NCBI GenBank assembly: GCA_041550275.1
Contig: JBFEPA010000001.1
Span: 1-47,916, forward strand
Direction: 5' to 3'
DNA length: 47,916 nt
Source: Thermoplasmata archaeon
GTDB taxonomy: Archaea > Thermoplasmatota > Thermoplasmata > UBA10834
The notes below the pieces were generated by a model. It made no database searches and was not told the origin of the DNA. It saw nothing but the letters and a program-made list of their open reading frames with translations. This document shows, piece by piece, positions 22-45,469 of this stretch. The number at the start of each line of letters is the position of its first letter. The stretch's first letter is position 1. Made by a program: the position numbers and the translations under genes.

Positions 22-125
22 GGAAGAAAATGAAAGGGGTTTGGCCCTTCGTGCAAATTCTATAGTGCTCTGATTGAAATATAGCCAGTCTCCCGAGTAT
101 GAATCCGGCTCCCTGCACGTCGCAC
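22..125 (+). repeat. Intergenic modular repeat unit, copy R1 (GA-rich tract, A-like, CTCTGATTGA, GCCAGTCTC, CTGCACGTCGCAC)
   Basis: Contains gctctgattga (67-77), gccagtctc (84-92) and ctgcacgtcgcac (113-125). The segment gtatgaatccggctc matches gtatagatccggctc in copy R4. Module order is the same as in R7, R8 and R9. Confidence 0.6.
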
Positions 126-267
126 CTCGGTCTAACCTGACACAAGTCCCCCTCGGGTCTAGCCCACACAGGACCGCAGCGCAAGGGGCGCGCGGCCGTC
201 GCAAGAGCCGCTCCGGGACGGCACCATTCTAATAGCCGCGACCATCATCACGTGGTGACGAGATATT

Positions 268-1188
268 ATGCCAGAGAAGCCATTGTTCATCCGACGTCTT
301 GAGCAGAATGATTGCTATGGAAGCGTCGTCTCAGCCAAGCATCTCGAAGAGCTCGGCGAGGAGATCAGGTCGTTGCACAACGAGGGGCTGCTCGACGAGG
401 ACTTCTACCGCGAATTTGAAGACCCCTATTTCACACCGACACTGCCTGAGAGCCTGCCAAATGCGAGGTCGATAATCGTCGTCGCGATGCCGCGGCCCAT
501 ATTACGCACGACTTTCCACTGGGAGGGCCATGAGGTGCGGGCTTCAGTCCCCCCGAACTACCCTGACACGGACAAGGTGGTCAGGCGAGCCAGACACGAA
601 TTAAGGAGAGCTTTCAAGCCAAGGCAGTACAAGCTCTTGAGGGCAGTGTTGCCAGTCAAGCTCCTTGCCGTCAGGAGTGGCCTGGCCAAGTACGGCAGGA
701 ACAACATCACATACATCCCGAAGTATGGCAGTTTCCACCAACTCACGGCGTTCTATTCCGACTACCGAAGCCCGATCGACAACTGGCAGGACAAAGAGGC
801 GCTTCCATTGTGTGCGAAGTGCAGTGCATGCATCAAGACCTGCCCGACCAACGCCATCGAGAAGAACAAGTTCCTAATCCGCGCTGAGAAGTGTCTGACA
901 TACCTGAACGAGAAGGAAGCTAAGCACGCGTTTCCCAAATGGGTAGATGCTTCGTCCCACAACTCTATCATCGGTTGCATGCGGTGTCAGAGGGCCTGTC
1001 CCTACGACAAGAATGTTGTCGATTGGTGCGAGGACCGAGGAGAGTTCAGCGAAGAGGAGACCGCATATCTTCTCAGGGGCAGGTTCGGAGGCGACAAGGC
1101 CGCGGTGATGCAGAAGAAGTTGAAGAGAATCGGCCTCGACCTGAGCATATTCCCAAGAAACTTGAAGGTTCTCTTGGACAGGGAGTGA
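268..1188 (+). CDS. 4Fe-4S double-cluster protein, epoxyqueuosine reductase (QueG)-like / reductive-dehalogenase-related
   Basis: 306-aa ORF with an ATG start. It has two ferredoxin-type motifs, CAKCSACIKTCP and CMRCQRACP, after an N-terminal domain typical of QueG-like proteins. Confidence 0.6.
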   Translation: MPEKPLFIRRLEQNDCYGSVVSAKHLEELGEEIRSLHNEGLLDEDFYREFEDPYFTPTLPESLPNARSIIVVAMPRPILRTTFHWEGHEVRASVPPNYPDTDKVVRRARHELRRAFKPRQYKLLRAVLPVKLLAVRSGLAKYGRNNITYIPKYGSFHQLTAFYSDYRSPIDNWQDKEALPLCAKCSACIKTCPTNAIEKNKFLIRAEKCLTYLNEKEAKHAFPKWVDASSHNSIIGCMRCQRACPYDKNVVDWCEDRGEFSEEETAYLLRGRFGGDKAAVMQKKLKRIGLDLSIFPRNLKVLLDRE

Positions 1189-1252
1189 TGATGGCCTCTA
1201 TTCGGAGAGACAGGGAGAACAAAGGGCACTGCGGAACCCGACTCGCAGAATA

Positions 1253-1378
1253 GATGATCTCGGGCACAGACAATCGGCTTCACACATGGCGCACCACGGC
1301 AAAGGCACTATTATTGCCTGGAGAAGAAGGGTGCGAAAAGAAGTCTAGCTCGATGCAAGAGCCCATTGATTGATGACA
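1253..1378 (+). repeat. Intergenic modular repeat, degenerate copy (B-like caatcggcttcacacatggcgcac, GA-rich tract, TCTAGCTCGATGC, cccattgattgatgac)
   Basis: gaagaagggtgcgaaaagaagtctagctcgatgc resembles gagaaggaggccgagaaggagtctagctcggtgc of R8. The B-like module lies upstream of it. Confidence 0.4.
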
Positions 1379-1401
1379 TGCTAAAGGGGGGCTTCCGCAG
1401 T

Positions 1402-2094
1402 CTACTCCTGCTTCACGCCAACGTCACGGAGCTTCAGGAAGGGATACGAGTTCCTGACCAGCTGCAGCTGGGCCTTCCTAAGATGCTCCCCAAAGGTCGA
1501 CCTAGAGACCCCCTCACCTCTAGCGACCCGGTCCATCCTGGTCTTCGCTGGTATCTCGAGGAGGCCGTTCTCGAAAGCCAGCACGAGTGCACGGACTTGC
1601 CGAGGCGTCAGACCTCCAAAGAAGTGAAGTGGTATCACGGAGAGATTATTGACCACGTCAAGATCCCCTCTGGACTGGTGAGATACAACCTGTACCTTTC
1701 CCGTCCGCTTCACCTCGGCGACGAAACGCTGAAGCGACGCTCTGCCAACCGACAAAACCCGGTGGGTCTCCCAGCCATTGAGATATGTCACCGGAGGAAT
1801 CAGCCAGACATCGCACTCGCCGGCGATGGACATGACTGACCCGTAATCTCCGCACGCGCACTTGCGCGAGATCGTGATGGCAGAGCGCCCGTCCTGGATC
1901 ATCTCTCGAGCGCTCAGCAGCTTCCTAGCCGCTTTCAGCATCTTCGGGAGTATGGAGGAATCCGAGGCGGATATCTGCAAAATCTCGTTTGAACCGTTGC
2001 ACCAGAGGACCATCTCCGCATCTGGAAAGGACGATGAGAAGTCGCAGAACGGGCACGGATGCTGTATCCTTAGTCGGGTGTCGAGAAGGCTCAC
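1402..2094 (-). CDS. HTH_10 (bacterio-opsin-activator-type) DNA-binding transcriptional regulator
   Basis: 230-aa ORF with a GTG start. The C-terminal stretch LTPRQVRALVLAFENGLLEIPAKTRMDRVARGEGVSRSTFGEHLRKAQ is the archaeal HTH_10 signature. The N-terminus is Cys-rich. Confidence 0.8.
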   Translation of the reverse strand: MSLLDTRLRIQHPCPFCDFSSSFPDAEMVLWCNGSNEILQISASDSSILPKMLKAARKLLSAREMIQDGRSAITISRKCACGDYGSVMSIAGECDVWLIPPVTYLNGWETHRVLSVGRASLQRFVAEVKRTGKVQVVSHQSRGDLDVVNNLSVIPLHFFGGLTPRQVRALVLAFENGLLEIPAKTRMDRVARGEGVSRSTFGEHLRKAQLQLVRNSYPFLKLRDVGVKQE

Positions 2095-2600
2095 AATCAG
2101 TCACATCACGCAGGACCTAAAAAACTTTTGCCGCCCCAAGGCGGCTCTCATATAGGCCCGGCCAAGGGAGGCAGAAGGCTTACTGGCTCGGTCGCGGTTC
2201 AACTGATAAGATGTCCCTGGACTTACTCCTAGCAGAGAGCTTTAGAAGATGGAAAGAGGACCGCGCCCCCATCGAGCTGAAACGATATGCGAGGCGCGAA
2301 TGGGGCGCAGAGACCTGCTTCCTTCACCTCCACAGTCGCTCCAAGCACCTGTCCTCTGGGCACTCCGTAGCCGTTGCCTTGTCTCGTATAGTGCAATCAT
2401 TGCTCGGCATCACTCGGAGCAGACCAGTGAATGAAAACAGGCCCCCCGCAAACAAGGTATCGGTCAGCAAGCCAGTTCATTCCACTGAGATTCCTAGTTC
2501 CAGTATCGCCTCTGAGGGTGTCAGCACGGGGCCGGCGGACCCACTAATCATTGGCTTGGGGGACAAGAAGAGTCGGACAGACGCAGAGTCCGCCCCCACA

Positions 2601-2750
2601 GCGATCCCACACACATCCGAAATCTAGCTCGGCGCCGATCCTCTGTGATCGAGATGAGCCATCCGCCCAGGGTTCGCATGTCGCACCCATGATAAAAGGC
2701 CGTAGGGGCGGAAGAGGCGACTTGTGATAGCAGAAGGCTTCTCGTCATCG
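2601..2750 (+). repeat. Intergenic modular repeat, copy R3 (two tandem units)
   Basis: Unit 1 reads aatctagctcggcgcc..cctctgtgatcgag..ccatccgccc..agggttcgcatgtcgcaccc. Unit 2 reads catgataaaaggccgtaggggcggaagaggc..cttgtgatagc..ctcgtcatcgag. The stretch cccatgataaaaggccgtaggggcggaagaggc matches R5 at 30 of 33 nt. Confidence 0.75.
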
Positions 2751-2789
2751 AGACTAGTCAAATCTCGACCGTTAGGATCACCGTTGCAC

Positions 2790-3674
2790 TCATCTGAGCC
2801 ACTTTCTGCGTCTCACGAGGACGACCACAACAGCACAAACAACGATTACGACTGCGGCGAATACTGCAATCAATACGCCCGGAACGACGAGTGAGTCCGT
2901 ATCGTCATCCCCATTCGGACCGCTGCTATCGTAAACCGGCACATCGTTGCCGACCAGCGAATTGGAATTCATGTCAATGTCATTGCACTCTGTCAGATAT
3001 ATCCCATATTGATTTCCCGCGATGTCATTCCCCGAAATCGATGAGTCCGACGTGCAGTTCAGGTACACTCCATACTCACTGTCAGATATGACATTGTCTG
3101 TTATCTGGACCTGCTCGCAAAGGTGAGAGTACACTCCATGTCTCGAGCCGTTGATCTCGTTGAGCTCAATATCGATGTATTCGGAAGCCACCGCATAGAC
3201 ACCGGAGAAGGAGTTGTTTATGATAGTGTTGTTCTTGATAGTCACACTGACCGTGGTGTTGAGTGTAATCCCATCATTGTTATCGGCCAACACTGAATCC
3301 TCGATCCATGCGTTCCTGACATTTGACAGCCAAATCCCGTTGTACAGCGCCCCTCCCGTTTCGACACGCACATTCCGGATTTTGAAATGGGCGTCTGTGT
3401 GGCTGATCTGTATGCCCCCTGCAGATCCGGCAGCCAGGGAGGCATTGATGATCCAACCTTCGATTATGTAAGGGTCTTCTTCAGTACCCTGCCCTCCCGT
3501 GACGCCGTTCTCGGCGACAAAGCCAGAGTCATCATCTATCTGAATCACATCGTGCGGCGTGTAGGTTTGAACCGCTTCAGCAGGGGTTGTCGATAGAGAA
3601 GTTCCTGCTAGAGGTAGAAAGAATATTACAGCGATTGCCCCGGTAATCCTCAATCTCATAGCCATTCGAACCAC
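2790..3674 (-). CDS. Secreted right-handed parallel beta-helix repeat protein (NosD-like) with C-terminal membrane anchor
   Basis: 294 aa. It has an N-terminal signal sequence and repeated motifs of the type NN.I.GI.L / N.I..N..GIYL. The C-terminal hydrophobic helix is followed by RRRKWLR. The start is GTG at 3674, with an alternative ATG at 3665. Confidence 0.75.
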   Translation of the reverse strand: MVRMAMRLRITGAIAVIFFLPLAGTSLSTTPAEAVQTYTPHDVIQIDDDSGFVAENGVTGGQGTEEDPYIIEGWIINASLAAGSAGGIQISHTDAHFKIRNVRVETGGALYNGIWLSNVRNAWIEDSVLADNNDGITLNTTVSVTIKNNTIINNSFSGVYAVASEYIDIELNEINGSRHGVYSHLCEQVQITDNVISDSEYGVYLNCTSDSSISGNDIAGNQYGIYLTECNDIDMNSNSLVGNDVPVYDSSGPNGDDDTDSLVVPGVLIAVFAAVVIVVCAVVVVLVRRRKWLR

Positions 3675-3760
3675 AATGGAATCTCACCGTTTGCACCCTA
3701 CTTATACCTTGTCTTGTCCCTGCTACCTGACCTACTGACACGAGGGAATGAATCGCCAAG

Positions 3761-3849
3761 AAAGAAGCTGATAAGGAGTTTAGCTCGGTGCTAAAATCGC
3801 GAAATCTAAATCTGACCAGTCATCCAAGTATAGATCCGGCTCAACCCAC
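3761..3849 (+). repeat. Intergenic modular repeat, copy R4
   Basis: ggagtttagctcggtgctaaaatcgcgaaatctaaatctgaccagtcatcc is about 85% identical to R6 over roughly 50 nt. The tail gtatagatccggctcaacccac matches R1 and runs across the VIT1 stop codon at 3841-3843. Confidence 0.75.
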
Positions 3850-4572
3850 TAGAAGATGAACTATTCTACCGAACAGAAACCCCAGACCGCACGATATTCC
3901 CCCGATTGCCAAAGTCTCCAGTCCACTTACCAGCCTAGGCATCTTGGTAAGCTTCGTCTTCCATATCCCTAGCAAGAACAGGAAGGCAAGAATCGTGGCC
4001 GCGCTAACCAAAAGCGCGCTCTCAGGCGTTGACATTATGAAGAACGGCAGTATTGCGGGAAACGCTCCGACCAGAAAGGATAGCGATGCAATGGCGCCGA
4101 TCCTCCAAGGGTCATCAATCTGTCCCGGCGATATGCCAATCTCTTCCTGAACCATGAACTTCAGCCACAGTTTCTTATCGCTCGTGATCCTTTTAACCGC
4201 CGTATCCTGCTCCTCTGCAGAGAAACCGTATTCCTCGAAGATCTCGCGAATCTCTTGAGTTTCCTTCTCAGGCATCTCCTCGATCTCCTGAGTTTCCCTT
4301 CGCACTTGACTTTCGAAGAAATCCTTCTGCGCCTTCGTCGAGATGAAAGCACCGAAGAATATCGCTATAGCGCCTGCAGAAATCTGAGCCATACCAGCCA
4401 ATACTATGCTGTCATTTGTTTCCACGAGGGCAGAGACACCCGCGAGGAAGGCGACCGTCGTTATAAGACCAGTATCGATGGCATAGACGATATCTCGTAT
4501 CAACCGTCCCCGCGGCGTATGCCAGTCCTCTCCATGCCAAGCTTTGAGCCGATCTTGCTTACCGACCACCAT
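3841..4572 (-). CDS. VIT1/CCC1-family iron/manganese transporter
   Basis: 243 aa. It has an N-terminal cytosolic segment, TM helices ([15 protein letters not shown]..), a central acidic helical insert ([24 protein letters not shown]) and three C-terminal TM helices, which is the typical VIT family layout. Confidence 0.85.
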
Positions 4573-4771
4573 ACGCTATTCCATCTCTGCAACGACGTCG
4601 ACAAAGAAATCACTTTCCACGAACAAGCGTCTAAGGAAACCGCTTGGCGGGATTGCGAAGCGTCCGAGGATGGCCGTTAGATTTCCATCGGAGACCACGA
4701 ACGAAAATGCATGTCGCAACCACTTAATATCAACTACGCGATTGGTGATTGAGCACCTGGAGGGATCAGCC
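4573..4771. promoter_or_regulatory. Divergent control region between the VIT1 and catalase genes; candidate TATA box ttaatat at 4724-4730 and SD ggaggg at 4759-4764 for catalase
   Basis: An A/T-rich heptamer lies about 45 nt upstream of the catalase ATG, and GGAGGG lies 8 nt upstream of it. The region also holds a degenerate repeat-unit fragment (aaaatgcatgtcgcaacc, 4704-4721). Confidence 0.35.
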
Positions 4772-6301: not shown

Positions 6302-6465
6302 CGTTGACGACGATTCGACATAGCTTCATCCCTCGCGAAGTCGCCTGATGGATGTTGGTCTTTAGGCAAACTGGTCACGCTAATATACCCCGTAACTCTG
6401 TACCCTTTTCGGAGGGGAGAGGCGATGTCGAGATGCCATATCTTTTCCAGTTGGAGGTACAGAGG

Positions 6466-7663: not shown

Positions 7664-7740
7664 CAATTTCTATTCTCACGTGATTGCGGAGATCTTGCCG
7701 TCGAGACAGAGATTTGAGACCGGCATAAGGATAGAATAAG

Positions 7741-7926
7741 GGTTAGCAAGGAGTCCGGCTAGGCGCAGAAGCCCTCTGATTGACAACCAGCTAGTGTTCG
7801 GGTTTCATTTACGGAGTTCTTCCCAACCCACCAGACCTCGCCCATGAGAAAAGGCCATAGGGGCGGAAGGGCATTCCGTACTTGTCGAAATGTCGATCCT
7901 CAGTATATTGAGCGCGAGTCCAGACC
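7741..7926 (+). repeat. Intergenic modular repeat, copy R5 (two tandem units)
   Basis: Unit 1 reads caaggagtccggctaggcgc..ccctctgattga..ccagctagtg..gggtttcatttacgg. Unit 2 reads cccatgagaaaaggccataggggcggaagggc..cttgtcgaaatg..tcgatcctc..agtatattgagcg. Confidence 0.7.
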
Positions 7927-7971
7927 TATAGATGTAGCAAGACAACCCTGATGAAGTAGGAGAGACATACG

Positions 7972-8502: not shown

Positions 8503-8554
8503 GCAACTATTTTATCAGCAGAAAATCGACTAGATGCCATGGCCCTCTGTGAGA

Positions 8555-8652
8555 GCGGGAAAGAGTGAGAAGGGATTTAGCTCGGTGCTAAGATCGCGAA
8601 ATTAAAACCTGGCTAGTCATCTCGTCTCAGAGTCGATTCGTGCACATGGCTC
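8555..8652 (+). repeat. Intergenic modular repeat, copy R6
   Basis: gggatttagctcggtgctaagatcgcgaaattaaaacctggctagtcatctcg matches R4 at about 85%. The tail gattcgtgcacatggctc resembles the B module. Confidence 0.75.
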
Positions 8653-9996: not shown

Positions 9997-10030
9997 ATCT
10001 CATAGCACGCGGTCTGCGTACTACCTTCAT

Positions 10031-10125
10031 TGATTTCACGAGGAAAGGCGATGAAAAGGTCTATATCCCGGTACAAAAACCCTCTGATTGAAAAATGGCC
10101 AGTCATCGCGTTTCAAAGTCGCTTC
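10031..10125 (+). repeat. Intergenic modular repeat, copy R7
   Basis: tgatttcacgaggaaaggcgatgaaaaggt matches R8 at 28 of 30 nt. The whole unit aligns to R10 at about 75% over roughly 75 nt. It contains ccctctgattga and ccagtcatc. A weak B-like tail (gcgtttcaaagtcgcttc) covers the cphA stop codon. Confidence 0.75.
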
Positions 10126-12737
10126 TTACTTTTCGCCAATAAATTCTCTTTGTATTCCAAAACATCAATGATTGCCCTATTAAAAAAGTTGGCCTGAATG
10201 ACAATCAGGTCGCCCTCTTTTGCCATTTTAAGAGCCGCTAGTATGGCAGCATGCTCTTCGGGGACCATCTCAATGTTATCTTCAGGGAATCCCGTGGATA
10301 GTATGCCCTTGCGCACCAGTTCAGCGGTTTCACCGGTCTTTCGCTGTCTGGGACACGCATCGCAAAGGATGATGTGATCGTACATATTCCCCATATTTCT
10401 GCCAAAATTGAATATGTCCACGTCTCTCCTGTCACCCGTGCCGCTTCCGACATTGATCTTTCTCCCTCTTGCAAGGTGAGGAATGAGATTCGCCAATGCT
10501 TCCAGGGCCGAGGGGTTGTGTCCGTAATCAATCAAAACCTTGAATGTGTCAACATCTATGAGATTCGCCCTGCCGGGTAATTGTCCCGTTGATGGATTGA
10601 ATGTAACAAGGCTGAGTTGTATGGTCTTGATATCTATGCCTATCGCATAAGTTGCCGCTACTACGGCCAGGGTATTGGAGACATTGAATGTTGCTTTCCC
10701 GTCAAAAGTAATCGGAATTGTGTTTATCTTCGCTATATGAATGTCAGATGCGCCTTTTCTCAGGATAATCTCTCCGTCCTTGATGGTCACGGCAACCCCA
10801 CCGTTGGAGATGTGAGATGCAAGTGCTGGATTATCATCGTGGATAGAGAATAATATAGATTTTGCCTTGATGACGTCTTTGTATTTCAGGGTCCACTCAT
10901 CATCGGCATTTAAAACAGCAAACCCCTCAGGTTTTACTGTTTCGACCACGAGTCCCTTGAGTTCTGCCAGTTCCTCCATGGTGTTGATTCCATCCAAGCC
11001 CAAGTGGTCGGGAGATACGTTTAGGACAACGCCTACATCGCTTTCATCGTAACCCAACCCCCTCCTCAGGATGCCGCCACGGGCGACCTCCAAGATTGCG
11101 TGGTCTACAAGCGAATCCTTCAGGATGTGTTTTGCTCCCCCCGGACCACTGTAGTCCCCCTTTAGTACCAATTGGTTTCCGATCTCGACGCCGTCCGTGC
11201 AGCACATTCCCACGTTCTTTCCCGCGTATTTCAGGATATGAGCTATAAATCGGACCGTGGTTGTCTTCCCGTTCGTACCGGTAACCGCTATGATGGGGAT
11301 TGTGCTCTTACTGCCTGGGGGGAACAGCATGTCGACAACAGGTTTGGCAACGTTTCGCTTGGTGCCGTAGCAAGGGTCCAGATGCATCCGGAATCCCGGG
11401 GCAGCGTTCACCTCTACGATCCCGCCGCCAGTTTCCTTCAGAGGCTTCTCAAGGTTGGGTGCTACCACATCGATTCCCATGACATTGATGTCAATTAATT
11501 TAGATATCCGCTCCGCCATCTTCTTGATATGAGGATGTACCTCATCAGTCACATCTATCGAGCAACCGCCAGTACTCATGTTGGCGGTGGATTTGAGGCG
11601 AAGTATTCTACCCTCAGGAAGTACATCCGTGAGTTTCCGCTCATGCTGTCTGAGCAGTCTCCTCGTCATGCTATCTATCCTTATTTTTGTAAGGACTTTC
11701 TCGTGTCCGATGCCGCGTCTCGGATCTTTGTTAATCGCGTCTATCAATTCGCGAATTGTTGATTTCCCGTCGCCCATCACGCTGGCAGGTTCCCTTCTCG
11801 CAGCCGCGACGAGCTCTCCATTGATGACCAGCAACCTGTGGTCATAACCTTCTAGATGCTTCTCAACAAGTACGTAGTCATGGAATTTCTTCGCGCTTGC
11901 GTATGCCATCCGGAGTTCCTTTTCGTTATTGACAAGTGCCGTGATACCCTTCCCATGATGACCGACCAGCGGTTTCACGGCAACTGGGTATCCCACATTG
12001 CTGGCAACAGTGACCGCTCCCTGCAGATCCCGCACAGATTCTCCCCTGGGAACAGGCACACCCGCATCCTCCAGTATCTCCTTGGTCTGCTCTTTATCGT
12101 CTGCAATATCAACGCCGATGGCAGAGGTATTGAACATCATGGTGGCCTGAATCCTCCGCTGGTGTACTCCGTGACCCAACTGAACATAACTCTGATTATT
12201 GAGGCGGATATACGGAATCCCGCGGCTCGCCGCCTCCTTTATTATCGAAAAAGTCGAGGGGCCAAATAGATTTGCCTCACGCACTTCCTTCAATTGAGAG
12301 ATGATTGAGGCAATCCTGATTCGTCGATTCTGGAATAAGGCATCCACTATCCTTACGGCCGCCTCTCCGGCTTCGATGCCAGCCTCGGGGCTTCGATATC
12401 TGAAGACAACGGTGTAAACGCCCTTTTCGGAGGTTTCGCGCGTCTTGCCGAAACCGACGTTCATATTCGCAAGACACTGGAGTTCAATCGCCACATGTTC
12501 GACGATATGACCCGCCCAGGTTCCGGTCTCGACCCTCTCCAAGAAACCACCGGGATAACCCAAGGAGCACCGATGTTCCGCTATGGTAGGTATCAGCCTG
12601 CAAAGTCTGTCTTTCAGGCCGGGAACCATATCTGACGGTTTTCCCTCCAGTTCGCCGATATCCAAAAGCATGTAGATTACAGGATAGCGACTGTAGTAGT
12701 TCGAGCCATAGAGGGCGCGGATTTCCCTAATAATCAT
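10113..12737 (-). CDS. cphA: Cyanophycin synthetase
   Basis: 874 aa. The N-terminus MIIREIRALYGSNYYSRYPVIYMLLDIGELE is characteristic of CphA. A central ATP-grasp region follows (GYPVAVKPLVGHHGKGI). The C-terminal Mur-ligase-like domain carries the P-loop VTGTNGKTTT. The length is typical of CphA1. Confidence 0.95.
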   Translation of the reverse strand: MIIREIRALYGSNYYSRYPVIYMLLDIGELEGKPSDMVPGLKDRLCRLIPTIAEHRCSLGYPGGFLERVETGTWAGHIVEHVAIELQCLANMNVGFGKTRETSEKGVYTVVFRYRSPEAGIEAGEAAVRIVDALFQNRRIRIASIISQLKEVREANLFGPSTFSIIKEAASRGIPYIRLNNQSYVQLGHGVHQRRIQATMMFNTSAIGVDIADDKEQTKEILEDAGVPVPRGESVRDLQGAVTVASNVGYPVAVKPLVGHHGKGITALVNNEKELRMAYASAKKFHDYVLVEKHLEGYDHRLLVINGELVAAARREPASVMGDGKSTIRELIDAINKDPRRGIGHEKVLTKIRIDSMTRRLLRQHERKLTDVLPEGRILRLKSTANMSTGGCSIDVTDEVHPHIKKMAERISKLIDINVMGIDVVAPNLEKPLKETGGGIVEVNAAPGFRMHLDPCYGTKRNVAKPVVDMLFPPGSKSTIPIIAVTGTNGKTTTVRFIAHILKYAGKNVGMCCTDGVEIGNQLVLKGDYSGPGGAKHILKDSLVDHAILEVARGGILRRGLGYDESDVGVVLNVSPDHLGLDGINTMEELAELKGLVVETVKPEGFAVLNADDEWTLKYKDVIKAKSILFSIHDDNPALASHISNGGVAVTIKDGEIILRKGASDIHIAKINTIPITFDGKATFNVSNTLAVVAATYAIGIDIKTIQLSLVTFNPSTGQLPGRANLIDVDTFKVLIDYGHNPSALEALANLIPHLARGRKINVGSGTGDRRDVDIFNFGRNMGNMYDHIILCDACPRQRKTGETAELVRKGILSTGFPEDNIEMVPEEHAAILAALKMAKEGDLIVIQANFFNRAIIDVLEYKENLLAKSKKRL

Positions 12738-15189: not shown

Positions 15190-15240
15190 ATGACCCCCGT
15201 AGTACCCATCCAGTTCTTAGTTAATCCGATTCAAGCCCCT

Positions 15241-15377
15241 GAGAAGGAGGCCGAGAAGGAGTCTAGCTCGGTGCCAATTCCTAGACATAGAGCTGACCCA
15301 TTCAATCGGGTTTGCACGTCGCACAAACTGAACCGTCGATTTCACGAGGAAAAGCGATGAAAAGGTTTGCATATCGG
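15241..15377 (+). repeat. Intergenic modular repeat, copy R8 (full unit plus the start of a second)
   Basis: It reads gagaaggaggccgagaaggagtctagctcggtgcc..cccattcaatcgggtttgcacgtcgcac, then gatttcacgaggaaaagcgatgaaaaggtttgcatatcgg. It links the A, G and B modules to the module seen at the start of R7. Confidence 0.8.
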
Positions 15378-20520: not shown

Positions 20521-20605
20521 ACGAGGATAGGCGATGGAAGAGTGTATATCCTGGTGCGAAAAATCTGATCGAGAAACGGCTAGACACCGCCGCGTGCACA
20601 CGGAT
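20521..20605 (+). repeat. Intergenic modular repeat, copy R10
   Basis: acgaggataggcgatggaagagtgtatatcctggtgcgaaaaatctgatcgagaaacggctagacaccgccgcgtgcacacgg aligns to R7 at about 75%. Confidence 0.7.
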
Positions 20606-20617
20606 CAGTGGGCCGAC

Positions 20618-34667: not shown

Positions 34668-34744
34668 GTTCAACTCGGTGTGAAGGTTGCAGGATTGAAT
34701 CCCAGGCAGTCCCAGAAACGAAGCCCCGGCTTCGACCTCCTCGG
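34668..34744 (+). repeat. Intergenic modular repeat, degenerate copy
   Basis: gttcaactcggtgtg..gcaggattgaatcccaggcagtcccag..ccccggcttcgacctcctcgg is collinear with R1 (gctctgattgaaatatagccagtctcccgag..atccggctccctgcacgtcgcacctcgg). Confidence 0.4.
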
Positions 34745-37802: not shown

Positions 37803-37925
37803 TTCTCTCCGATTGACAGAGAAACACGAAGGTATCTAGCTCGACGCAGGTTCTCTCTGACAGAAACTAACCAGTCAATTCGGTTTGCATGTCGCACCAT
37901 GCACACCGCGGATCCCACACAGGCT
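37803..37925 (+). repeat. Intergenic modular repeat, copy R9
   Basis: It reads ttctctccgattgacag..ggtatctagctcgacgc..ccagtcaattcggtttgcatgtcgcacc..gatcccacacagg. The B-module stretch matches R8 at about 23 of 28 nt. Confidence 0.75.
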
Positions 37926-37950
37926 TAGAGCCGACACGGCAACCCTTCCA

Positions 37951-40900
37951 CTACTCCACGTCGTCCTGATCGGGCGGGGCACGTCGTCTGCGCAAGACGA
38001 CCACGGCGGCAATGAGCAGGATTGCAGCAGTCGCGGCGATCAAGACCATGAGCCACGGCATCCCTTGACCACCCGGCCCTTCGTCCATCAGGCCCGCGAT
38101 GCCGAAGAGGGAGAGGCCCGACACATTGGCCCACAGATAACCCTCGTACGTCATTCCGAACATCTCGACGTCTGTGGTGTTCACGCCTGTCGTATCAACG
38201 ATGTCCGAAAGCCTGACCCACGATCCATCTGCGGACATGAGGTACAACTGAAGAGAGCTTTCGTTGAGGTCCTCTGGGTCGTCTCCGTCCCCGTCCCCGT
38301 TCATGTCGAGGTCTGCCGCGGTGTAGTATATCTTGATGAGCGACCCGGATACCACATCAGACATGTTGGGGTCGTGTGACTGGAACTCTATCCGCACGTA
38401 CTTGTCCATGATGACCTCGTCAGGCGCAAGTGCATCCGAACCCGAAAGGCTGTCCTCGACCTCGTCATCATGTAGCTTCTCGACTGCGATGCTGAATGTC
38501 GTCATGTTGCTCAACTTCGTCCATACGAATGTGTCGGTTGCCCTCATGGTGTCGATCTGGTCGAGCATGAAACATTCCCTCGGGTTGAGGTAGTCCACGA
38601 GCACGCTTCCGTCCGAGACGGTCATCCGCATGCTCTTCAGGATGCCCAGAACCCTGATCCAGTCAGTGTCGTAGACCTGGGAGATCATCACTATCGTCTG
38701 CGTCTCGTTCCACAGCCCGTATCTCACAGCAATCCGCTCATAGACTGTGCTGGTCATCCTATCGACAACGTCCCCTGAGTCCTCAAGCAGGTCATGGATC
38801 AAGCCGCCTGCGCCGCCTGCGTCTGAATCCGGAGTCCCCACGAGAACGATGTACCGGGCGCTACTGTAGTTGGACTGCAATGTATCCGCATCGACGACCC
38901 TGACCGTTGCGTGTTCGGACAGATTGTAGACGAAACCTGCACAAGTTCCGATATCATCGTACGCGAGCACGATCTCGCCGTCGAGCTCGAGCAGGTAGTC
39001 GAGGTCGAGGGAGTCGGGTATTCCATCGCCGTCGGAATCGGTGCTCTTCGGGTTGAGTCCGAGTTCGAGCTCTCTCGAGTCGCTGAGTCCGTCGCCGTCG
39101 GTATCGTTGGACAGGGGGCTAATCAGGGAGGATATCTCGAACCCATCTGAGAGCCCGTCACCGTCGGAATCGCCCGAAGTGGCGTTCGTGTCGTAGAGGA
39201 CTTCGTAACCGTCGTCGACCCCGTCGGAGTCAGTATCTGGGGAGTTCGGATCCGTTCCGAGCCGGTACTCCTGCCCGTCGAACATGAAGTCTCCGTCGGA
39301 GTCAGGATTCTTCGGGTCGGAACCGAAGCCGATCTCCTTCAGGTCGTCCAGGCCGTCCTGGTCTGTGTCGTTGTTGTTGGGGTCCGAGCCGAGCAGGAAC
39401 TCCTCGTAGTCTGACAGGCCTTCGCCATCAGTGTCCGGGAGCTTCGGATCGCTGCCGAAATTGATTTCGACTCCGTCCCCGAGCCCATCACCGTCGGTGT
39501 CCCAATGCGTCAGGTTTGTCCCGAGTTCCCACTCTTCCGAATCCGGAAGCCCGTCTTCGTCTGGGTCGAGCGAGCGCGGGTCGGACAGGAGGGCGGCCTC
39601 GTCGGGGTCGGGAATGTCATCGGCGTCCGTGTCGGGCGCCATCGGATCGCTTGTGATGAGGTAGGTGAGAGTCTCATCTTCCGTCGTGACTGTTATGAAC
39701 CATCCGTCGTTCTCCTCGATATCCGTCAGGCCGTCACTGTCCGCGTCCAAGAAGATGTAGTCGGGGTCTGCCGGTATCAGTTCCATATAGTGGGAGGTTT
39801 TCGTCACGTTCTGCCAGTTGGCCAGGTAGATGTTGTTCTCGTCATCCACCGCGATGCCGCTGCCTGCAATGTAGTCTTCCTCGAAACTGCACATCCACCT
39901 GCCTTCAGGAGTCCACTTCTGTATACGCTCCGCGAAATCACCGCCCGCGTCGAGCGTGAGTATATCGCCGCTGGCGTCGACCGCCATGCTCCTGACTCTG
40001 CTGATAAAACCGTCCTGAGTGCCTGTCTCGCCCCACATCGTCACGAACGTGCCATCTGATTCGAATTTCTGGATCCTGTCGTTGCCCATGTCGGAGACGT
40101 AGACATATCCATCCTCATCGATATCGATGTCTGCCTCGAAGGAATCCAGGTTGAATTGCCCAGGTCCCGTGCCATAACCTCCCCAAGAGGTCTCCAGCGA
40201 CACCACTTCAGTTCCGTTCATCACGAATTTGAGAACATGGTCGTAGGAGTCCAAGAGATACATGTAGTACGTGTCGGCGGTCGGGCCGTTGGGATCCAAC
40301 GCCAATCCGAGCACTCCGACGTCCACTCCCACGAGCTCGCTGTAGGGCAACTGGTCCAGGATCGTGCCATTCTGTGCGTAGAAGAACAGGTTCGAACCCG
40401 TGCAAGCGAACAGGACGGGTTGGCGCTCGCCGGACACGTTCGCCGACATGCACTCGAGCTCCGAGGGTCGGGTCGGAGTAGATATCACTCGAATCTCTGT
40501 TCCGTTATGGTCGTAGACAGCGATGGTGCTGTAGTTGTCAGTATACACGAACCCGTCCTCATCCACAGCGACGACGTACGGATAGTAATCCCCGGCCTCG
40601 GGCGCGAAGGAAGCACTGAAATCGATTTGCGTAAGATAGTAGTCCGTGATCTCGTCCTGAGTGCCGTCCCCATCGGTGTCGGCGCTCCTCGGGTTGAGTA
40701 GACAGTAGTACTCCTGGAAGTCGTTGATGCCGTCTCCGTCAGTGTCGTTCAGATGCGGGTCGGAGTTGACCATCCAATAGTAGGTGTTGTTCCTGTAGGT
40801 GAAATTGACCGCCCATCCGTGATACTCGAAGTAGTCTGTGAGGCCATCGCCGTCCGAGTCCGGATTGGTGAAGTTGTATCCCCTAGCGTGCTCGAACCTG

Positions 40901-43900
40901 TCGTCCAGCCCGTCCTGGTCGGTGTCGTGGCCGGACCATCGGCTGGGGTTGGAGCCGATCTGGAGTTCGTAGGCGTCGCCGAGGCCGTCGCCGTCCGTAT
41001 CCCACCTCCACGGGTCCGTGTTCGCCGATGCCTCCTCAGATGCATTCAAGCCATCTCCATCGGAGTCGCTAGAGACCATGCCTCGCCATTCGCCGAACTC
41101 GTCGATGCTGCCAGGCATGACGTCGAAGTATATCGTGGTCCAGTGCGAGACCTGAGTATCGGACGGGTCATTGGTCTGCGACTCCCTGTCGCACCACCAT
41201 CCGAAGAACCACCAGCAATCGTCGTAGTATATCCTGTAGTCGGAATACAGGCCGACGGCCACCGGGAAGTTCACCATGCCTATCCCCGGCCGGACCCATG
41301 CTTCGGTCTCGTACAGGACCGACTTGGAAGTCGACGTGTAGACCGTGGAGTTCTCTACCGTCGATCCCCCTCTCACCGACTGAGAGCCCCACGGGACGGA
41401 TATGACCTGGTGAGGAATGATGTAGCTGTCGACCAAGTCTCCGTAGGTGCCGTCGCCGGTTATCGTGACGTTCCCGTACAGGCGGCTGCTGTAGGATATG
41501 TTGTCACCGACATCTATCCCGTTCCCGTCCACGTCCACGAAGGACATATCGGAGTCGACATATTCCAAGTCGACATTGCTCCGGGTCCTGGTATCCGTGA
41601 AGCAGTCGATAAGCCACCCGATGAACAAACCCATGAAATCAATCCCGAATATCTGCAGCACCGTATCCACCAAGGCGATCAGCAGGGCGATGACCACGCC
41701 GACAGGGCCACCGAATGCTGCTATGGCCAACAGCGTGAGAGAGTACGCGAGCATGACTACGGAGTAGGTGACAGCGATGCCCGTGCCGACCGATCCCCAG
41801 CCGAGCTCTTCGCCTATCGCGAAGAGCGCGTATAATGAGATGCCGACAGCGAGGATTACGCCGATGACGTTCATGGCCGTGCTGATACGCTGAACAACAG
41901 TGGTCGAGCTTGTCAGGGTCTGTTTGACCGAGTTGAACGTGGTCTTGAACAGATCCCAGGTGCTCTGACCGGCGGTCTTGGCAATGGTGCCGAGTCGCGC
42001 GAAGGCCTCACAGAAAGCATAGGCGGTATCGAGTATCTCGATGGCCGTGAATATGATGTCTATCGACATCATGGTCACTTCTATGATGGCCTCGACGGTC
42101 TCGTCCAGAAACACGACTTCCGGATAGTCGTGGTCTACGGCCACCCCTCCGACAGATGCGATCGTGAATTCGCCACAGTACCACGCCGACACGAGGCTGA
42201 CCGTGGTTACCAGAGCGCTCTCGTTCAGGTCCCAGGCCCTGACCTCTTCGATGACCTCAAACAGCTCGAGGGGGGTTTCGTCCCCTCCCGTGTACCAGCT
42301 GGAGCGGAGAACCTTCGAAACGATCGCGGGCTCACTCGTAAGGTCGGCCGACAGCGGACCGTCGTGGATGTACGACTCCGAGAGCTGTCCCAGCTCGATG
42401 CAGACGGCCTCATCCTCCACGCCCACGATCACAGGCAAGGTCTCTCCCACCGCCATGGATTCCATTGCGGAGGGGATCATTGTCGACATGGCTTCCTGCA
42501 TGGCCAAGTCCTGGTGCGAGAAGCCCCGGACATCCGACACGATTGCCGTGAGGTTGTAGTCTCCGAGCAACGCGGGGACATCATCCAGGCTGTTCGATGA
42601 GTTCCTCAGATACTCATACGCGAGGAGCAGATTGGCCGCGATCAGTTCGTCGAGTTCGGCTCCGTGGAAAACGCCAACGCTGGAGCCTAGGTTCTCGCTG
42701 ACCTCGAGCCCCGTCAGCGCGAAATCCTCGTAGTAGGTGGCGAGAATCATCGGGGATGACGCCACCCCAAGGTCAATCTCAGTGAACAGGCTACTGCCTT
42801 CGGACTCCGCATCATCCGCGGTCAATGTGCCATCTGATGTGGCCGTCAGGTTGTTGCCATTACCTGCAACGATCACAACGGAACCATCATCATCTCTGTT
42901 GAACACGAACTCGGTGTCGGTCGTTACCTCATCCGATGACGCGGATATTGACCCGTCGGGGTTGAGCGTAACATAGAGGCCGTTAGAGGCCACGAGGGAG
43001 CCGCGGTCTTGCCCCAACGACGTCCAGACGAACGTCTCATTCGCTCCAATGTCGTCTCCGTTGGCCAGAATCGAACCGTCGGCCTGCAGACGCAGGTAAT
43101 CGCCACTCTCCGATGCGAACGCCCTGATCTCGTTGTCATTAAGACCGCTGACCCTCCACATGAGGCTGAGGTCGAGAGACACGCTAAGAGGCGATGCGGT
43201 CTCGGGGAAGAACATCCTGCCCTTAAGGGCGACCATGTTGCCATATTCCCATACGGGAAACAGCGGAACATACGCCGATGTGTCGTCTACTATGATCCCG
43301 TAATCCTCGATCTCGTCCTGATCCGGGAGGTCCTCGCAGTCGATTATCAGTGTGGGTATGATGACGACGTCGTCCACGGAACCGTCCAAGTCCCTGAACG
43401 ACCCCCTTGAATCGGTGGGCCAGTCCCAGCTCTGTTGTATGAGCCTCATATGGTTGGGATTGTCTGTCCTGAGCTGAAACGACACATAGGTCGGGCTTCC
43501 CGAAGTCTGCACCGTGACCTCGATATCGCTCCTGAGCGTAGTTTTGGCGAAGGGCGACATATCCAGATAGTCAGGCACTCCATCGTCGTCGTTGTCGGGA
43601 TCCCACGCATTGGGCAGGCCATCGCCGTCTAGGTCGAACGTGACATTCGTCACTTCCGCGTAATCGGGAAATCGATCATCGTTGGAATCGGCCTTGTTGG
43701 GATCCATGCCCATGAACGCTTCGTCGTAATCGCTCAGTCCGTCGAAATCGCTGTCCGGGTTGAAGGGGTCGGTGCCGATGACGAGCTCAACCGAGTCGGG
43801 GAGGCCGTCGCTGTCCGAGTGGTTCGTATCGTCCGTGTTGTTCATCAGCTCCCCAACGAACCTGCTGAGATCCCGGAAGGCTGCGGGGATCTCGTGCGGG

Positions 43901-44019
43901 GTCTGCTGAGAAGTCACCTCCTTCTCGCTGAGGTTGTTGAGCATCGGCTGAAATGCAAGCATAACCAGGCAGACTGTCACGACTACAGAAGCCACTGTGA
44001 TGCGCTTTCGCGAAAGCAA
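37951..44019 (-). CDS. Giant (2,022 aa) membrane-anchored surface protein: three arrays of thrombospondin-type-3-like Ca-binding repeats, beta-trefoil-like region, internal TM cluster, NHL-type beta-propeller, C-terminal TM anchor
   Basis: The start is TTG after GGAGAGGAG, followed by an N-terminal signal/anchor. D.D.DG..D..E repeats lie at about 43539-43824, 40659-41097 and 38990-39690. NHL-like blades (YVYVSDMGNDRIQKFESDG, ERIQKWTPEG) lie at about 39700-40630. Hydrophobic helices lie at about 41599-41872. The final TM is followed by RRRRAPPDQDDVE. Confidence 0.85.
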   Translation of the reverse strand: MLSRKRITVASVVVTVCLVMLAFQPMLNNLSEKEVTSQQTPHEIPAAFRDLSRFVGELMNNTDDTNHSDSDGLPDSVELVIGTDPFNPDSDFDGLSDYDEAFMGMDPNKADSNDDRFPDYAEVTNVTFDLDGDGLPNAWDPDNDDDGVPDYLDMSPFAKTTLRSDIEVTVQTSGSPTYVSFQLRTDNPNHMRLIQQSWDWPTDSRGSFRDLDGSVDDVVIIPTLIIDCEDLPDQDEIEDYGIIVDDTSAYVPLFPVWEYGNMVALKGRMFFPETASPLSVSLDLSLMWRVSGLNDNEIRAFASESGDYLRLQADGSILANGDDIGANETFVWTSLGQDRGSLVASNGLYVTLNPDGSISASSDEVTTDTEFVFNRDDDGSVVIVAGNGNNLTATSDGTLTADDAESEGSSLFTEIDLGVASSPMILATYYEDFALTGLEVSENLGSSVGVFHGAELDELIAANLLLAYEYLRNSSNSLDDVPALLGDYNLTAIVSDVRGFSHQDLAMQEAMSTMIPSAMESMAVGETLPVIVGVEDEAVCIELGQLSESYIHDGPLSADLTSEPAIVSKVLRSSWYTGGDETPLELFEVIEEVRAWDLNESALVTTVSLVSAWYCGEFTIASVGGVAVDHDYPEVVFLDETVEAIIEVTMMSIDIIFTAIEILDTAYAFCEAFARLGTIAKTAGQSTWDLFKTTFNSVKQTLTSSTTVVQRISTAMNVIGVILAVGISLYALFAIGEELGWGSVGTGIAVTYSVVMLAYSLTLLAIAAFGGPVGVVIALLIALVDTVLQIFGIDFMGLFIGWLIDCFTDTRTRSNVDLEYVDSDMSFVDVDGNGIDVGDNISYSSRLYGNVTITGDGTYGDLVDSYIIPHQVISVPWGSQSVRGGSTVENSTVYTSTSKSVLYETEAWVRPGIGMVNFPVAVGLYSDYRIYYDDCWWFFGWWCDRESQTNDPSDTQVSHWTTIYFDVMPGSIDEFGEWRGMVSSDSDGDGLNASEEASANTDPWRWDTDGDGLGDAYELQIGSNPSRWSGHDTDQDGLDDRFEHARGYNFTNPDSDGDGLTDYFEYHGWAVNFTYRNNTYYWMVNSDPHLNDTDGDGINDFQEYYCLLNPRSADTDGDGTQDEITDYYLTQIDFSASFAPEAGDYYPYVVAVDEDGFVYTDNYSTIAVYDHNGTEIRVISTPTRPSELECMSANVSGERQPVLFACTGSNLFFYAQNGTILDQLPYSELVGVDVGVLGLALDPNGPTADTYYMYLLDSYDHVLKFVMNGTEVVSLETSWGGYGTGPGQFNLDSFEADIDIDEDGYVYVSDMGNDRIQKFESDGTFVTMWGETGTQDGFISRVRSMAVDASGDILTLDAGGDFAERIQKWTPEGRWMCSFEEDYIAGSGIAVDDENNIYLANWQNVTKTSHYMELIPADPDYIFLDADSDGLTDIEENDGWFITVTTEDETLTYLITSDPMAPDTDADDIPDPDEAALLSDPRSLDPDEDGLPDSEEWELGTNLTHWDTDGDGLGDGVEINFGSDPKLPDTDGEGLSDYEEFLLGSDPNNNDTDQDGLDDLKEIGFGSDPKNPDSDGDFMFDGQEYRLGTDPNSPDTDSDGVDDGYEVLYDTNATSGDSDGDGLSDGFEISSLISPLSNDTDGDGLSDSRELELGLNPKSTDSDGDGIPDSLDLDYLLELDGEIVLAYDDIGTCAGFVYNLSEHATVRVVDADTLQSNYSSARYIVLVGTPDSDAGGAGGLIHDLLEDSGDVVDRMTSTVYERIAVRYGLWNETQTIVMISQVYDTDWIRVLGILKSMRMTVSDGSVLVDYLNPRECFMLDQIDTMRATDTFVWTKLSNMTTFSIAVEKLHDDEVEDSLSGSDALAPDEVIMDKYVRIEFQSHDPNMSDVVSGSLIKIYYTAADLDMNGDGDGDDPEDLNESSLQLYLMSADGSWVRLSDIVDTTGVNTTDVEMFGMTYEGYLWANVSGLSLFGIAGLMDEGPGGQGMPWLMVLIAATAAILLIAAVVVLRRRRAPPDQDDVE

Positions 44020-44180
44020 GCTCTCCTCTCCCCTATCGACGCTTCCTATTCATGTGACACCGCACTCACGAAGGATATTCCTTTTGGTCGCTGCATCGGG
44101 AACGGACAGGGCTGTCGACGAGGCTCCTCGTAGAGTACGACATTCTTCGGTCGTCAGAAGGGGCCATCATCAGAGCGGAC

Positions 44181-45314
44181 TCAGTTCCCAGTCCACACAG
44201 GAGCTGTCCACGCTGTCACCCCCGGCTCCTCCCCATTCAGCGGCGAGACCGTGGTCACGCGCACGAAGAAGTACCGTGGCGCGCCATCCCCGCTCAGTAC
44301 TACGGTCTCATCGACGGAACTACTGCCCGTGGGTTCGAAGCTCCAGGCAGTCTCATTCCCGTCGGAGACTATCTCGACCAGCGTGATCGCATCGCACAGT
44401 CCGTCAGGATCGTCTATCACGATCGAGGCGGTGTAGCTGGTAGCGCCCGGGTTTGACAGGCACGACCCCATCACTTCGCCGTTCACGGTGAAACGTATCT
44501 CGAGGTTCTCGTCGAGGGTCGCATACCCTCTGCCCTCCCTCATGGCTTCGTACAGGTTGTCACTGGTCAGGCTGGGGGCGAGCAGGACCGTTCGGATCCC
44601 CAGCGGAGATATCCAGTCGCCGTAATGATCGTCCTCCGTCGCTGTGGGCATCATCTGCCAGCCCTCGTCCAGTGCTTTGATGTAGCTCGAGTCGCGATAG
44701 CCCCAGTTGTAGCACTCGAGCATACCCATGGCCGAATCACGTTCCTCCGTCCAGAAATCGAACTGGAAGTAGTCCCAGGCGACTGGGCATCCATATGACA
44801 ACGGATGGTTCCACTGGCCGATCGCCCCGGGCTCTTCAGCGATCCAATCGTATATCCATGGGAAGAACGACCCGCCGGTCATGCGCTCCCCTTGATAGTA
44901 CGATGGTGGTGCCAATCCCGGGTTGGGCGGCATGTTGGGCGTGCAGTATATGTTCAGCTCGTTTATTCCGCGCAGATAGTACTCGTATCCTGCCATTGCG
45001 ACGAAAGTCGAGGACGTGTGATCCTCGGCCGAGCGGAGTATGTCAGCCCACTCCCGGTCATTAAGCTCATGCTGGTGGTCGGTCACCGCCAGGAAGTCTG
45101 CGCCAGCCAACTGCGCCGCTTCGAACGCTTCATCCGGCGTGCCAGTGCCATCCGAGTAGGATGTGTGAGAGTGCAGATCCCCGAAGTACAGATTGTACTC
45201 AGGTTCGGCCTCTTCCGCTTCGACTGCGAGAGCTGTGCCGCAGCAGAAGGAAGGGCCAATCATCGCAATCACCACGACAAGAGACAGTCCCGAGATGAGT
45301 TTCCTACTGACCAT
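44181..45314 (-). CDS. Secreted PHP-domain metal-dependent phosphoesterase with C-terminal Ig-like domain
   Basis: 377 aa with a signal peptide. It contains the PHP motifs YFGDLHSHTSYSDG and FLAVTDH. The beta-rich C-terminal part is about 90 aa. Confidence 0.8.
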   Translation of the reverse strand: MVSRKLISGLSLVVVIAMIGPSFCCGTALAVEAEEAEPEYNLYFGDLHSHTSYSDGTGTPDEAFEAAQLAGADFLAVTDHQHELNDREWADILRSAEDHTSSTFVAMAGYEYYLRGINELNIYCTPNMPPNPGLAPPSYYQGERMTGGSFFPWIYDWIAEEPGAIGQWNHPLSYGCPVAWDYFQFDFWTEERDSAMGMLECYNWGYRDSSYIKALDEGWQMMPTATEDDHYGDWISPLGIRTVLLAPSLTSDNLYEAMREGRGYATLDENLEIRFTVNGEVMGSCLSNPGATSYTASIVIDDPDGLCDAITLVEIVSDGNETAWSFEPTGSSSVDETVVLSGDGAPRYFFVRVTTVSPLNGEEPGVTAWTAPVWTGN

Positions 45315-45400
45315 GGTTACGGAGTCCCCCCAAGGCTAGACGCTCAGAGGTATCCCGCTAAACACTATTTCTTGGTTACTGACCCGTGACCGGTGGCAAT

Positions 45401-45469
45401 GGATGATCCGCCCCTGACAGAATCGGTCGAAACGCCACAGGAAAAGGCCACGTTCGTACGGGAACGGGG
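45401..45469 (+). repeat. Intergenic modular repeat, degenerate copy
   Basis: ggatgatccgccc..aatcggtcgaaacgccac..aggaaaaggccacgttcgtacgggaacgggg is collinear with R3 (gagatgagccatccgccc..ggttcgcatgtcgcac..tgataaaaggccgtaggggcggaagagg). Confidence 0.4.

Follow-up and report, generated by a model that had tools for sequence, protein, structure and literature searches.

Polar arrays of tRNA-Leu-like repeat units at gene-module breakpoints in uncultured Thermoplasmata

She et al. are said to have described "gene capture in archaeal chromosomes" in 2001. In tRNA genes, the T-arm is a classical location of integrase crossover. Modules bounded by repeated recombinase sites are also known from integrative mobile elements exploiting Xer (IMEX) at dif, as in the CTX/TLC arrays, and from the pdif modules of Acinetobacter plasmids, in which the pdif sites alternate in orientation. 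tRNA gene fragments have been described as by-products of integration (PMC9897764), integrons have been described in archaea (PMC9668308), archaeal tyrosine recombinases (PMC8371274) and Xer recombination (PMC5357621) have been reviewed, and in haloarchaea dif adjoins the xerA operon (PMC11840125). Here, we analyse a family of short intergenic repeat units in 47.9 kb of DNA (47,916 nucleotides (nt), ~55% G+C) from a Thermoplasmata archaeon, contig JBFEPA010000001.1, hereafter the window. The units form a genuine family of one polarity, they resemble tRNA-Leu, and they coincide with insertions and deletions of gene modules and with breaks in synteny. On balance, they are probably decayed, non-functional copies of tRNA-Leu(CAG), left as attachment (att) site remnants of serial integration and still serving as breakpoints of module exchange.

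The family belongs most naturally with the att-site repeats derived from tRNA genes and with gene capture in archaea. It is an unusual variant of these because the units are dense, the modules are small and free of integrases, the leader is conserved, doublets of 106 nt occur and many Thermoplasmata populations have it. As at tRNA att sites with tandem integrated elements, direct repeats of the tRNA T-arm and 3′ end lie in the orientation of the tRNA and flank acquired genes, and one metagenome locus, L049, has the textbook arrangement with integrase fragments. In contrast to such sites, the units are far denser, with at least 10 in 38 kb of the window and a median spacing of 1.4 kb in the wider family, for which all counts of pairs, spacing, cargo and breaks rest on the metagenome loci among the matches listed. 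Furthermore, the units are near-full-length pseudo-tRNA copies with a conserved 30-nt leader, a module contains between one and three ordinary accessory genes or is empty (106 nt), almost no integrases are present, no one crossover position is defined (17 switch points, -33 to +66), and the family is common to many uncultured Thermoplasmata populations.

With integrons, clusters of attC sites lacking integron-integrases (CALINs) and the Vibrio superintegron with its Vibrio cholerae repeats (VCR), the arrays share co-oriented sites between short accessory cassettes and a content that varies between strains; integron arrays, too, often lack a neighbouring integrase and include non-coding "empty" cassettes. 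The unit arrays thus work like an integron array or CALIN, yet the boxes R″ (RYYYAAC) and R′ (GTTRRRY) are absent from the unit ends on both strands, in the consensus and in single copies, and neither a conserved imperfect hairpin nor IntI is present, so that classical attC sites were rejected as a candidate. Unlike integron cassettes, moreover, the units are tRNA-derived, their breakpoints fall at no fixed position, the cargo that they bound lies on either strand, and many modules are multigene. IMEX and pdif modules likewise lie between repeated sites, and in one lineage the unit array ends near xerA; in contrast to them, no 11-6-11 dif-type site was recognised in the units, and the units do not alternate in orientation.

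Miniature inverted-repeat transposable elements (MITEs), repetitive extragenic palindromes (REPs), bacterial interspersed mosaic elements (BIMEs) and tRNA-derived short interspersed nuclear elements (SINEs) are, like the units, short, non-coding, intergenic and multi-copy, with a preference for gene 3′ ends, and SINEs have tRNA ancestry in common with them. Unlike these elements, the units have no terminal inverted repeats, target-site duplication or hairpin, no empty sites were seen among 30 two-flank comparisons, no transposase is associated with the units, and they are strictly co-oriented locally. We know of no archaeal retrotransposition machinery that could make SINEs. No description of the unit family was found in the searchable literature.

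The unit family, its polarity and its tRNA-Leu similarity

An earlier, sequence-only reading of the window had claimed at least nine clear copies of a repeat with a fixed order of modules and a single (+) orientation, independent of the strand of the flanking genes. Our site-by-site reading of the nine listed copies confirmed the same ordered modules. Specifically, a purine-rich tract opens the unit and is followed by T(C/T)TAGCTCGGTGC, which we name M1, by a segment frequently containing CTCTGATTGA, by CCAGTCATC or GCCAG, and finally by GGTTTGCAYGTCGCAC or a longer tail, ...ATCCGGCTC.... The window contains 10 full units and one partial unit of ~75-106 nt, every one on the + strand. In a self-blastn comparison of the window, there are 23 plus/plus high-scoring segment pairs (HSPs) versus two plus/minus HSPs, both of which fall in coding mttB paralogues and not in units. 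An nhmmer model made from the window copies gives 10 matches (E from 1e-11 to 1e-19), on the + strand only, and its next-best match has E = 2.9.

Because a model derived from the window is circular, we built an independent hidden Markov model (HMM) from 131 metagenome copies, without any copy from the window or from the two genomes L009 and L010 (see below; comparison contigs and loci carry L numbers). This model recovers 10 + strand units in the window with scores of 10.3-60.5 bits (Table 1), while the top score on the − strand is just 2.7 bits and the maximum on 50 dinucleotide-preserving shuffles is 7.0 bits. The two-strand scan and the shuffled controls bear out the family and its polarity. 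Two further claims of the sequence-only reading fared less well. The statement that units lie in nearly every spacer was too strong, as they occupy about 10 of the 29 window spacers of at least 60 nt in our own gene map, nine or ten of them within the first 20.7 kb and one at 37.8 kb. The more degenerate copies proposed at 2150-2235, 6340-6450, 16800-16980, 17772-17833, 34668-34744 and 45401-45469 are at noise level (best E = 2.9), and the one proposed at 1253-1378 holds for its 3′ part (1323-1418) but not for the remainder.

A two-module pattern search of GTDB genomes found two, both of them Thermoplasmata metagenome-assembled genomes: L010 (Hel0.bin85), which is 96-97% identical to window positions 102-5668, and L009 (SG225.bin4). 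In metagenome contigs, the leader-plus-M1 pattern occurs at no fewer than 120 loci (at least), and full-length units, extending well beyond the pattern, occur at ~73 loci in ~160 copies among the matches listed. Two scans of viral contigs found no family members. Adjacent units in 42 multi-copy metagenome loci are co-oriented in 85 pairs versus opposed in four, and the independence from flanking-gene strand thus extends beyond the window; genes within modules lie on the strand of the unit in 77 cases and on the opposite strand in 54. The units favour gene 3′ ends, with the convergent arrangement (>R<) the commonest (50 of 127). In tandem doublets, the units repeat at a constant interval of 105-108 nt, and the full unit, comprising leader, M1, middle and tail, therefore measures ~106 nt. 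The only four opposed neighbour pairs among the matches listed lie in L082 (5145-13678), L071 (459-3748) and L030 (274-4730), and the unit order in L082, + + - - +, resembles the inversion of a unit-bounded segment.

The point missed by the sequence-only reading is the tRNA origin of the units. The consensus of 142 unique copies consists of a leader, ...gaaAAAAaaaaagAaAAGGAG, M1, TTTAGCTCGGTGC, a middle, AAtAATCCCCTGATTGAAAAAtaGCCAG, and a tail, ..AGTTCAaAtcCGGCTCcCt.ca. Over 21-22 nt, its end, GTTCAAATCCGGCTCCCTGCA, has exactly the sequence of the L049 tRNA-Leu(CAG) gene at its 3′ end, spanning the T-loop, the T-stem and the 3′ acceptor strand. For this 3′-end match, half of the units score above the 99th shuffle percentile. 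Aligned globally with tRNA-Leu, the consensus reaches z = 5.7-6.6 against shuffles, and Leu genes score highest among the 12 tRNAs available for alignment. The best-preserved units (the TTTAGCTCGGTGCTAAAATCGCG... type, which includes R3 and R5) are collinear with tRNA-Leu along their full length, through the D-arm, anticodon-stem and variable-arm regions, for example ACGGCGCTGGA versus ACGGCGCTAGA. In L049, the genuine tRNA-Leu(CAG) gene adjoins an integrase C-terminal fragment, and a co-oriented unit 4.4 kb downstream also adjoins an integrase fragment.

On the tRNA reading, the T(C/T)TAGCTCGGTGC module falls in the D-arm region, CTGATTGA...GCCAG covers the anticodon with the variable region, and GTTCAAATCCGGCTCCCTGCAC, or its short form GGTTTGCAYGTCGCAC, covers the T-arm and 3′ acceptor; judged by the alignments, the short form appears to be a GAATCCGGCTCCCTGCAC-type tail with an internal deletion. 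A purine-rich leader of ~30 nt precedes the tRNA-like parts and brings the full period to ~106 nt. Ancestry from tRNA-Phe, considered for a GAA-like loop (CTGATTGAAAATCAG) in some copies, was rejected on the best alignment being that with tRNA-Leu, in a comparison that lacked a tRNA-Phe gene.

There is no sign of a conserved RNA fold in the units. RNAalifold predicts 0 consensus pairs, single sequences fold no more stably than shuffles (z between -1.13 and +1.0), and neither a conserved hairpin nor terminal inverted repeats were found; the leader and the GCCAG region have merely partial, register-shifting complementarity, and the unit ends of the 142-copy consensus have just ~6 nt of acceptor-stem-like complementarity. 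No Rfam family matches the units, whether at gathering cut-offs, at E-value cut-offs or with permissive thresholds on small regions, and the sole Rfam matches in the window are PYLIS-like and lie inside mttB genes. The family of small RNAs suggested by the sequence-only reading therefore finds no footing in structure or in Rfam. Three further candidates were rejected: a structured RNA, C/D-box small RNA or riboswitch, suggested by GATGA and CTGA motifs (wrong C/D spacing, no consensus structure, no Rfam match); a small protein or leaderless open reading frame (ORF) in the unit (the start codon varies between copies); and an archaeal promoter with B recognition element and TATA box (a TATA-like TATAT is present in two copies only, and orientation is unrelated to genes).

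Module gain, loss and exchange at the units

Comparison of the window with L010 and L009 reveals gene modules that come and go with units at their borders. At unit R3, two units in L010 flank an extra 1341-nt segment encoding a 333-aa protein, and R3 is a hybrid of these two, with its left half from L010 copy a and its right half from copy b. At module X1 (2689-2711), L010 contains an extra 965 nt with an ACT-domain protein gene, with X duplicated at both ends, and at 1323-1418 the two genomes have different unit versions between conserved flanks. In L009, the sole homology with the window is a flavodoxin block (7846-8588, 94.5% identity), whose edges are module X on the left and the end of the R5 M1 on the right; unrelated genes lie to its left, and a tandem doublet followed by unrelated genes lies to its right.

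The same pattern is seen in the wider family. BLAST HSP ends fall within 60 nt of units in 21% of cases versus 3.8% expected, and of the 35 informative one-flank homologies, 25 break at a point where the partner locus also carries a unit in the same orientation. As to presence or absence at orthologous sites, a check proposed with the sequence-only reading, none of the 30 two-flank comparisons has an empty site lacking the unit alone, a test of little power because most of these pairs were near-identical; what does occur is the gain, loss and re-contexting of whole modules, and the sole size differences in the two-flank comparisons are extra unit-bounded modules. Systematic changepoint mapping of crossovers in 17 pairs places the switch points at about -33 to -19, 0, +9, +27, +36 to +45, +53 and +66 of the unit. 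They cluster at 0 and, in the largest group, at +36 to +45, where the T-arm begins. The first three comparisons had suggested one crossover at the M1 end, which failed under this 17-pair mapping; site-specific exchange at one or two cores (M1, T-loop) is possible.

The genes adjacent to units are a mixed accessory and defence set without mobile-element hallmark genes. They include GNATs, agmatine deiminase, peptidases, transporters, HEPN, AAA_15/21, HNH and DUF559 proteins, and an Eco57I-type restriction-modification gene.

Contigs of three independent assemblies end within ~30 nt of the window start, inside R1 (window 1-30; L010, in reverse, 1-122; the start of L011), which suggests that the units, or strain variation at the units, break short-read assemblies. 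Seven Logan contigs of the same population (L001 and L003-L008) begin in the 3′ half of the flavodoxin gene, at about window 8281-8409; these starts do not lie at a unit, hinting at strain polymorphism within the flavodoxin cassette.

Origin and activity of the units

We infer an integrase-mediated origin and a continuing recombination activity of the units. In the proposed mechanism, a tyrosine integrase would insert a circular DNA with a tRNA-like att site at a tRNA or att copy that is already resident, and each insertion would leave one gene module and one further unit in the same orientation. Serial insertion would build a co-oriented array in which the strand of the cargo is irrelevant; such a history would explain the polarity of the units because integration at one site always yields direct repeats, whatever the cargo strand. 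Recombination between two co-oriented units, either site-specific or through homology of the short conserved blocks, would delete, excise or exchange a module, and the units would thereby serve as joints in a store of accessory genes resembling an integron.

Several observations weigh against this reading. The tRNA similarity is weak outside the 3′ 22 nt, neither a covariance model nor ARAGORN recognises the units as tRNA (no ARAGORN calls on units in 60 loci and the window), and only in L049 does a genuine tRNA-Leu head an array, the window array being cut at its 5′ end. No tyrosine recombinase or integrase was found in the window, none was found among the genes neighbouring 86 units outside L049, and integrases occur in almost none of the 73 loci among the matches listed. 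The modules are far smaller than typical integrated elements, some "empty" ones measuring just 106 nt. The switch points spread across the unit and do not single out one site-specific crossover, and homologous or microhomology recombination via the conserved blocks fits the breakpoints equally well.

The junctions and the cargo could also reflect an active, dedicated integron-like cassette system in which the host XerA or some other integrase acts in trans on a core site inside the unit, a reading that we consider rather unlikely, with the M1 palindrome, AGTTTAGC-TCGGT-GCTAAAAT, and the T-loop as its candidate cores. In the best-preserved type, M1 forms an imperfect inverted repeat whose arms of 8-10 bp enclose a 5-nt centre (the 28-bp dif has imperfect inverted arms of 11 bp around a 6-bp spacer); two junctions lie precisely at M1, many further junctions fall at the T-arm start (+36 to +45), and the spectrum and spacing of the cargo resemble those of integron cassettes. 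In L104, L110, L059, L133 and L037, a Xer-type tyrosine recombinase lies 0.45-2.3 kb past the last unit, and homology between L104 and L110 is confined to the recombinase side of that unit. This recombinase, however, scores 176 bits as XerA versus 71 bits with the integron-integrase model and is the housekeeping XerA, in the conserved gene order CN-hydrolase, NadE, unknown, XerA; other Methanomassiliicoccales contigs have xerA without nearby units, no M1-like palindrome was found near xerA elsewhere (L133-L136), and on these grounds a dif/XerA site was set aside except as part of this rather unlikely reading. A cassette system is further disfavoured by the absence of a unique crossover point and of a recombinase in the window, and by the frequency of solitary units. 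Put in the form of an active gene-cassette system on tRNA-Leu-derived double-stranded sites, in place of attC hairpins, with circular modules of one or a few accessory genes (even the 106-nt empty ones), a tyrosine recombinase in trans, possibly XerA, and polar arrays of tens of kilobases as the outcome, the idea is conceivable, but we doubt it.

That solitary copies occur in many loci, that the 106-nt "empty" unit is conserved across many contexts, and that units prefer gene 3′ ends and convergent spacers would be natural for a tRNA-derived, MITE- or REP-like non-autonomous element with strand-specific transposition, the module insertions and deletions then being secondary and due to homologous recombination, under which scattered breakpoints are expected. 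A mobile element was the closest of the three proposals of the sequence-only reading, but the classical MITE or REP traits (hairpin, terminal inverted repeats, empty sites) were not seen. No target duplication was seen and no transposase family is associated with the units, the empty-site comparisons (0 of 30) speak against it with little power, and the 85:4 co-orientation needs an extra polarity mechanism; we judge this origin unlikely. Far less credible is a functional RNA or transcription signal, such as a terminator, a small RNA or a processing signal of tRNA-like type. In the window, seven of the 10 units do lie directly against the stop of a − strand gene; in the wider set, the downstream neighbour is convergent with the unit in 73 of 127 cases, with a median gap of 52 nt, and the purine/A-rich leader reads as an oligo-T/pyrimidine tract on the − strand, but such a signal is at odds with the folding and Rfam results and with an orientation independent of the flanking genes, and it leaves the module insertions and deletions and the tRNA-gene ancestry unexplained. 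We give the very lowest probability to polar sites, oriented with respect to replication, at which a protein of chromosome organisation or segregation would bind. The co-orientation extends across 38 kb or more of the window and across ~28-30 kb of other contigs, but the unit is long (106 nt) and poorly conserved (54% mean column identity of the window units), its distribution is clustered, its orientation switches within 14 kb in L082, and a tRNA-derived 106-nt unit at the breakpoints of insertions and deletions has no need of this explanation.

Near the recombinases, we note two further arrangements. L104 10433-13023, L110 1-3075, L059 4790-5051 and L133 10001-11440 belong to one lineage with a conserved flank after the last unit, consisting of an opposite-strand tRNA-Pro gene, two small ORFs and the housekeeping xerA operon; in L133 there is merely a degenerate half-unit, 450 nt from xerA. 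Elsewhere, a 404-aa tyrosine integrase adjoins tRNA-Val (L026 12920-14246, L033 2781-4107), ~3.5 kb past an array of four units, as a separate integrated element, which suggests that the region beside the four-unit array is an integration hotspot.

Units and genes of the window, and their significance

The individual units are listed in Table 1. R7 and R7b form a tandem doublet resembling the 105-108-nt doublets of the metagenome loci.

Table 1. Repeat units and associated modules in the window, with matches of the independent HMM
Feature	Position	Strand	HMM match	Score (bits)	Remarks
R1	21..125	+	24-121	44.6	cut by window start; 3′ end GAATCCGGCTCCCTGCAC matches tRNA-Leu(CAG) 3′ end
Rd	1323..1418	+	1324-1381	24.4	L arm, M1 (TCTAGCTCGATGC) and C module present, T module degenerate; overlaps stop of − strand gene 1402-2094
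R2	2600..2694	+	2622-2671	10.3 (weak)	E 2.5e-11 with window model; self-repeat family D9; M1 = TCTAGCTCGGCGC; T module shortened to GGTTCGCATGTCGCAC
Module X1 (ATGATAAAAGGCCGTAGGGGCGG)	2689..2711	+			upstream part of L arm; breakpoint of 965-nt L010 insertion
R3	3758..3851	+	3754-3849	60.5	type nearest tRNA-Leu (TTTAGCTCGGTGCTAAAATCGCG...)
R4	7733..7827	+	7733-7820	41.7	
Module X2 (CCATGAGAAAAGGCCATAGGGGCGGAAGG)	7841..7869	+			left edge of flavodoxin block common to L009
R5	8556..8644	+	8556-8630	42.6	M1 at 8576-8588, L009 homology stops just after
R6	10028..10131	+	10037-10117	50.9	self-repeat family D7; long L arm GATTTCACGAGGAAAGGCGATGAAAAGG; M1 variant TCTATATCCCGGTAC; overlaps cphA stop (10113)
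R7	15240..15329	+	15239-15277		matched by window-copy model and independent HMM
R7b, partial	15338..15377	+			L arm and M1 variant only; self-repeat family D7
R8	20523..20611	+	20523-20614	15.5	ends 7 nt short of − strand MttB stop at 20618
R10	37817..37905	+	37818-37909	21.4	between TBP gene and 2022-aa surface protein gene; left flank homologous to left flank of an L070 unit

The modules of the window carry an Fe-S protein, an HTH_10 regulator, a NosD-like protein, VIT1, catalase, clostripain, a flavodoxin, cyanophycin synthetase and cyanophycinase, ornithine decarboxylase, a GNAT, a glyoxalase, MttB with a peptide ABC transporter, and TBP. No tRNA gene was found in the window by ARAGORN. 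A protein look-up of the flavodoxin gave no match, and a look-up of VIT1 returned a gene order identical to that of the window. Cyanophycin synthetase (10113-12737, −) and cyanophycinase (12737-13609, −) share one repeat-bounded module, a pair that is, to our knowledge, unusual in Archaea.

Three genes of the MttB superfamily are present (20618-22090, −; 28094-29569, +; 30808-32259, −), of which the latter two form an inverted pair with ~72-75% identity. The Rfam model PYLIS_3 matches inside all three (42, 32 and 25 bits), and all three ORFs run through uninterrupted, with no TAG in frame; probably these are MttB homologues without pyrrolysine, and their coding sequence happens to look like the PYLIS model. 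The gene at 37951-44019 (−) encodes a surface protein of 2022 aa that combines bacterial TSP3 repeats with FRG1/fascin-like domains, and contains internal DNA repeats with a 66-nt periodicity (self-repeat families D1, D3 and D4).

Even as fossil att sites that now act as hotspots of recombination, the units would account for the assembly breaks at their positions, and the unit HMM or the 106-nt unit could serve as a marker for variable regions; they would also show that tRNA-gene fragments build dense polar arrays, which is relevant to the annotation of tRNAs and genomic islands. If the units are live joints, uncultured sediment Thermoplasmata would collect and exchange accessory genes as modules, among them catalase, flavodoxin, cyanophycin metabolism, methyltransferases, GNATs and defence genes, and archaeal platforms of gene capture would extend beyond integrons built on IntI and attC.

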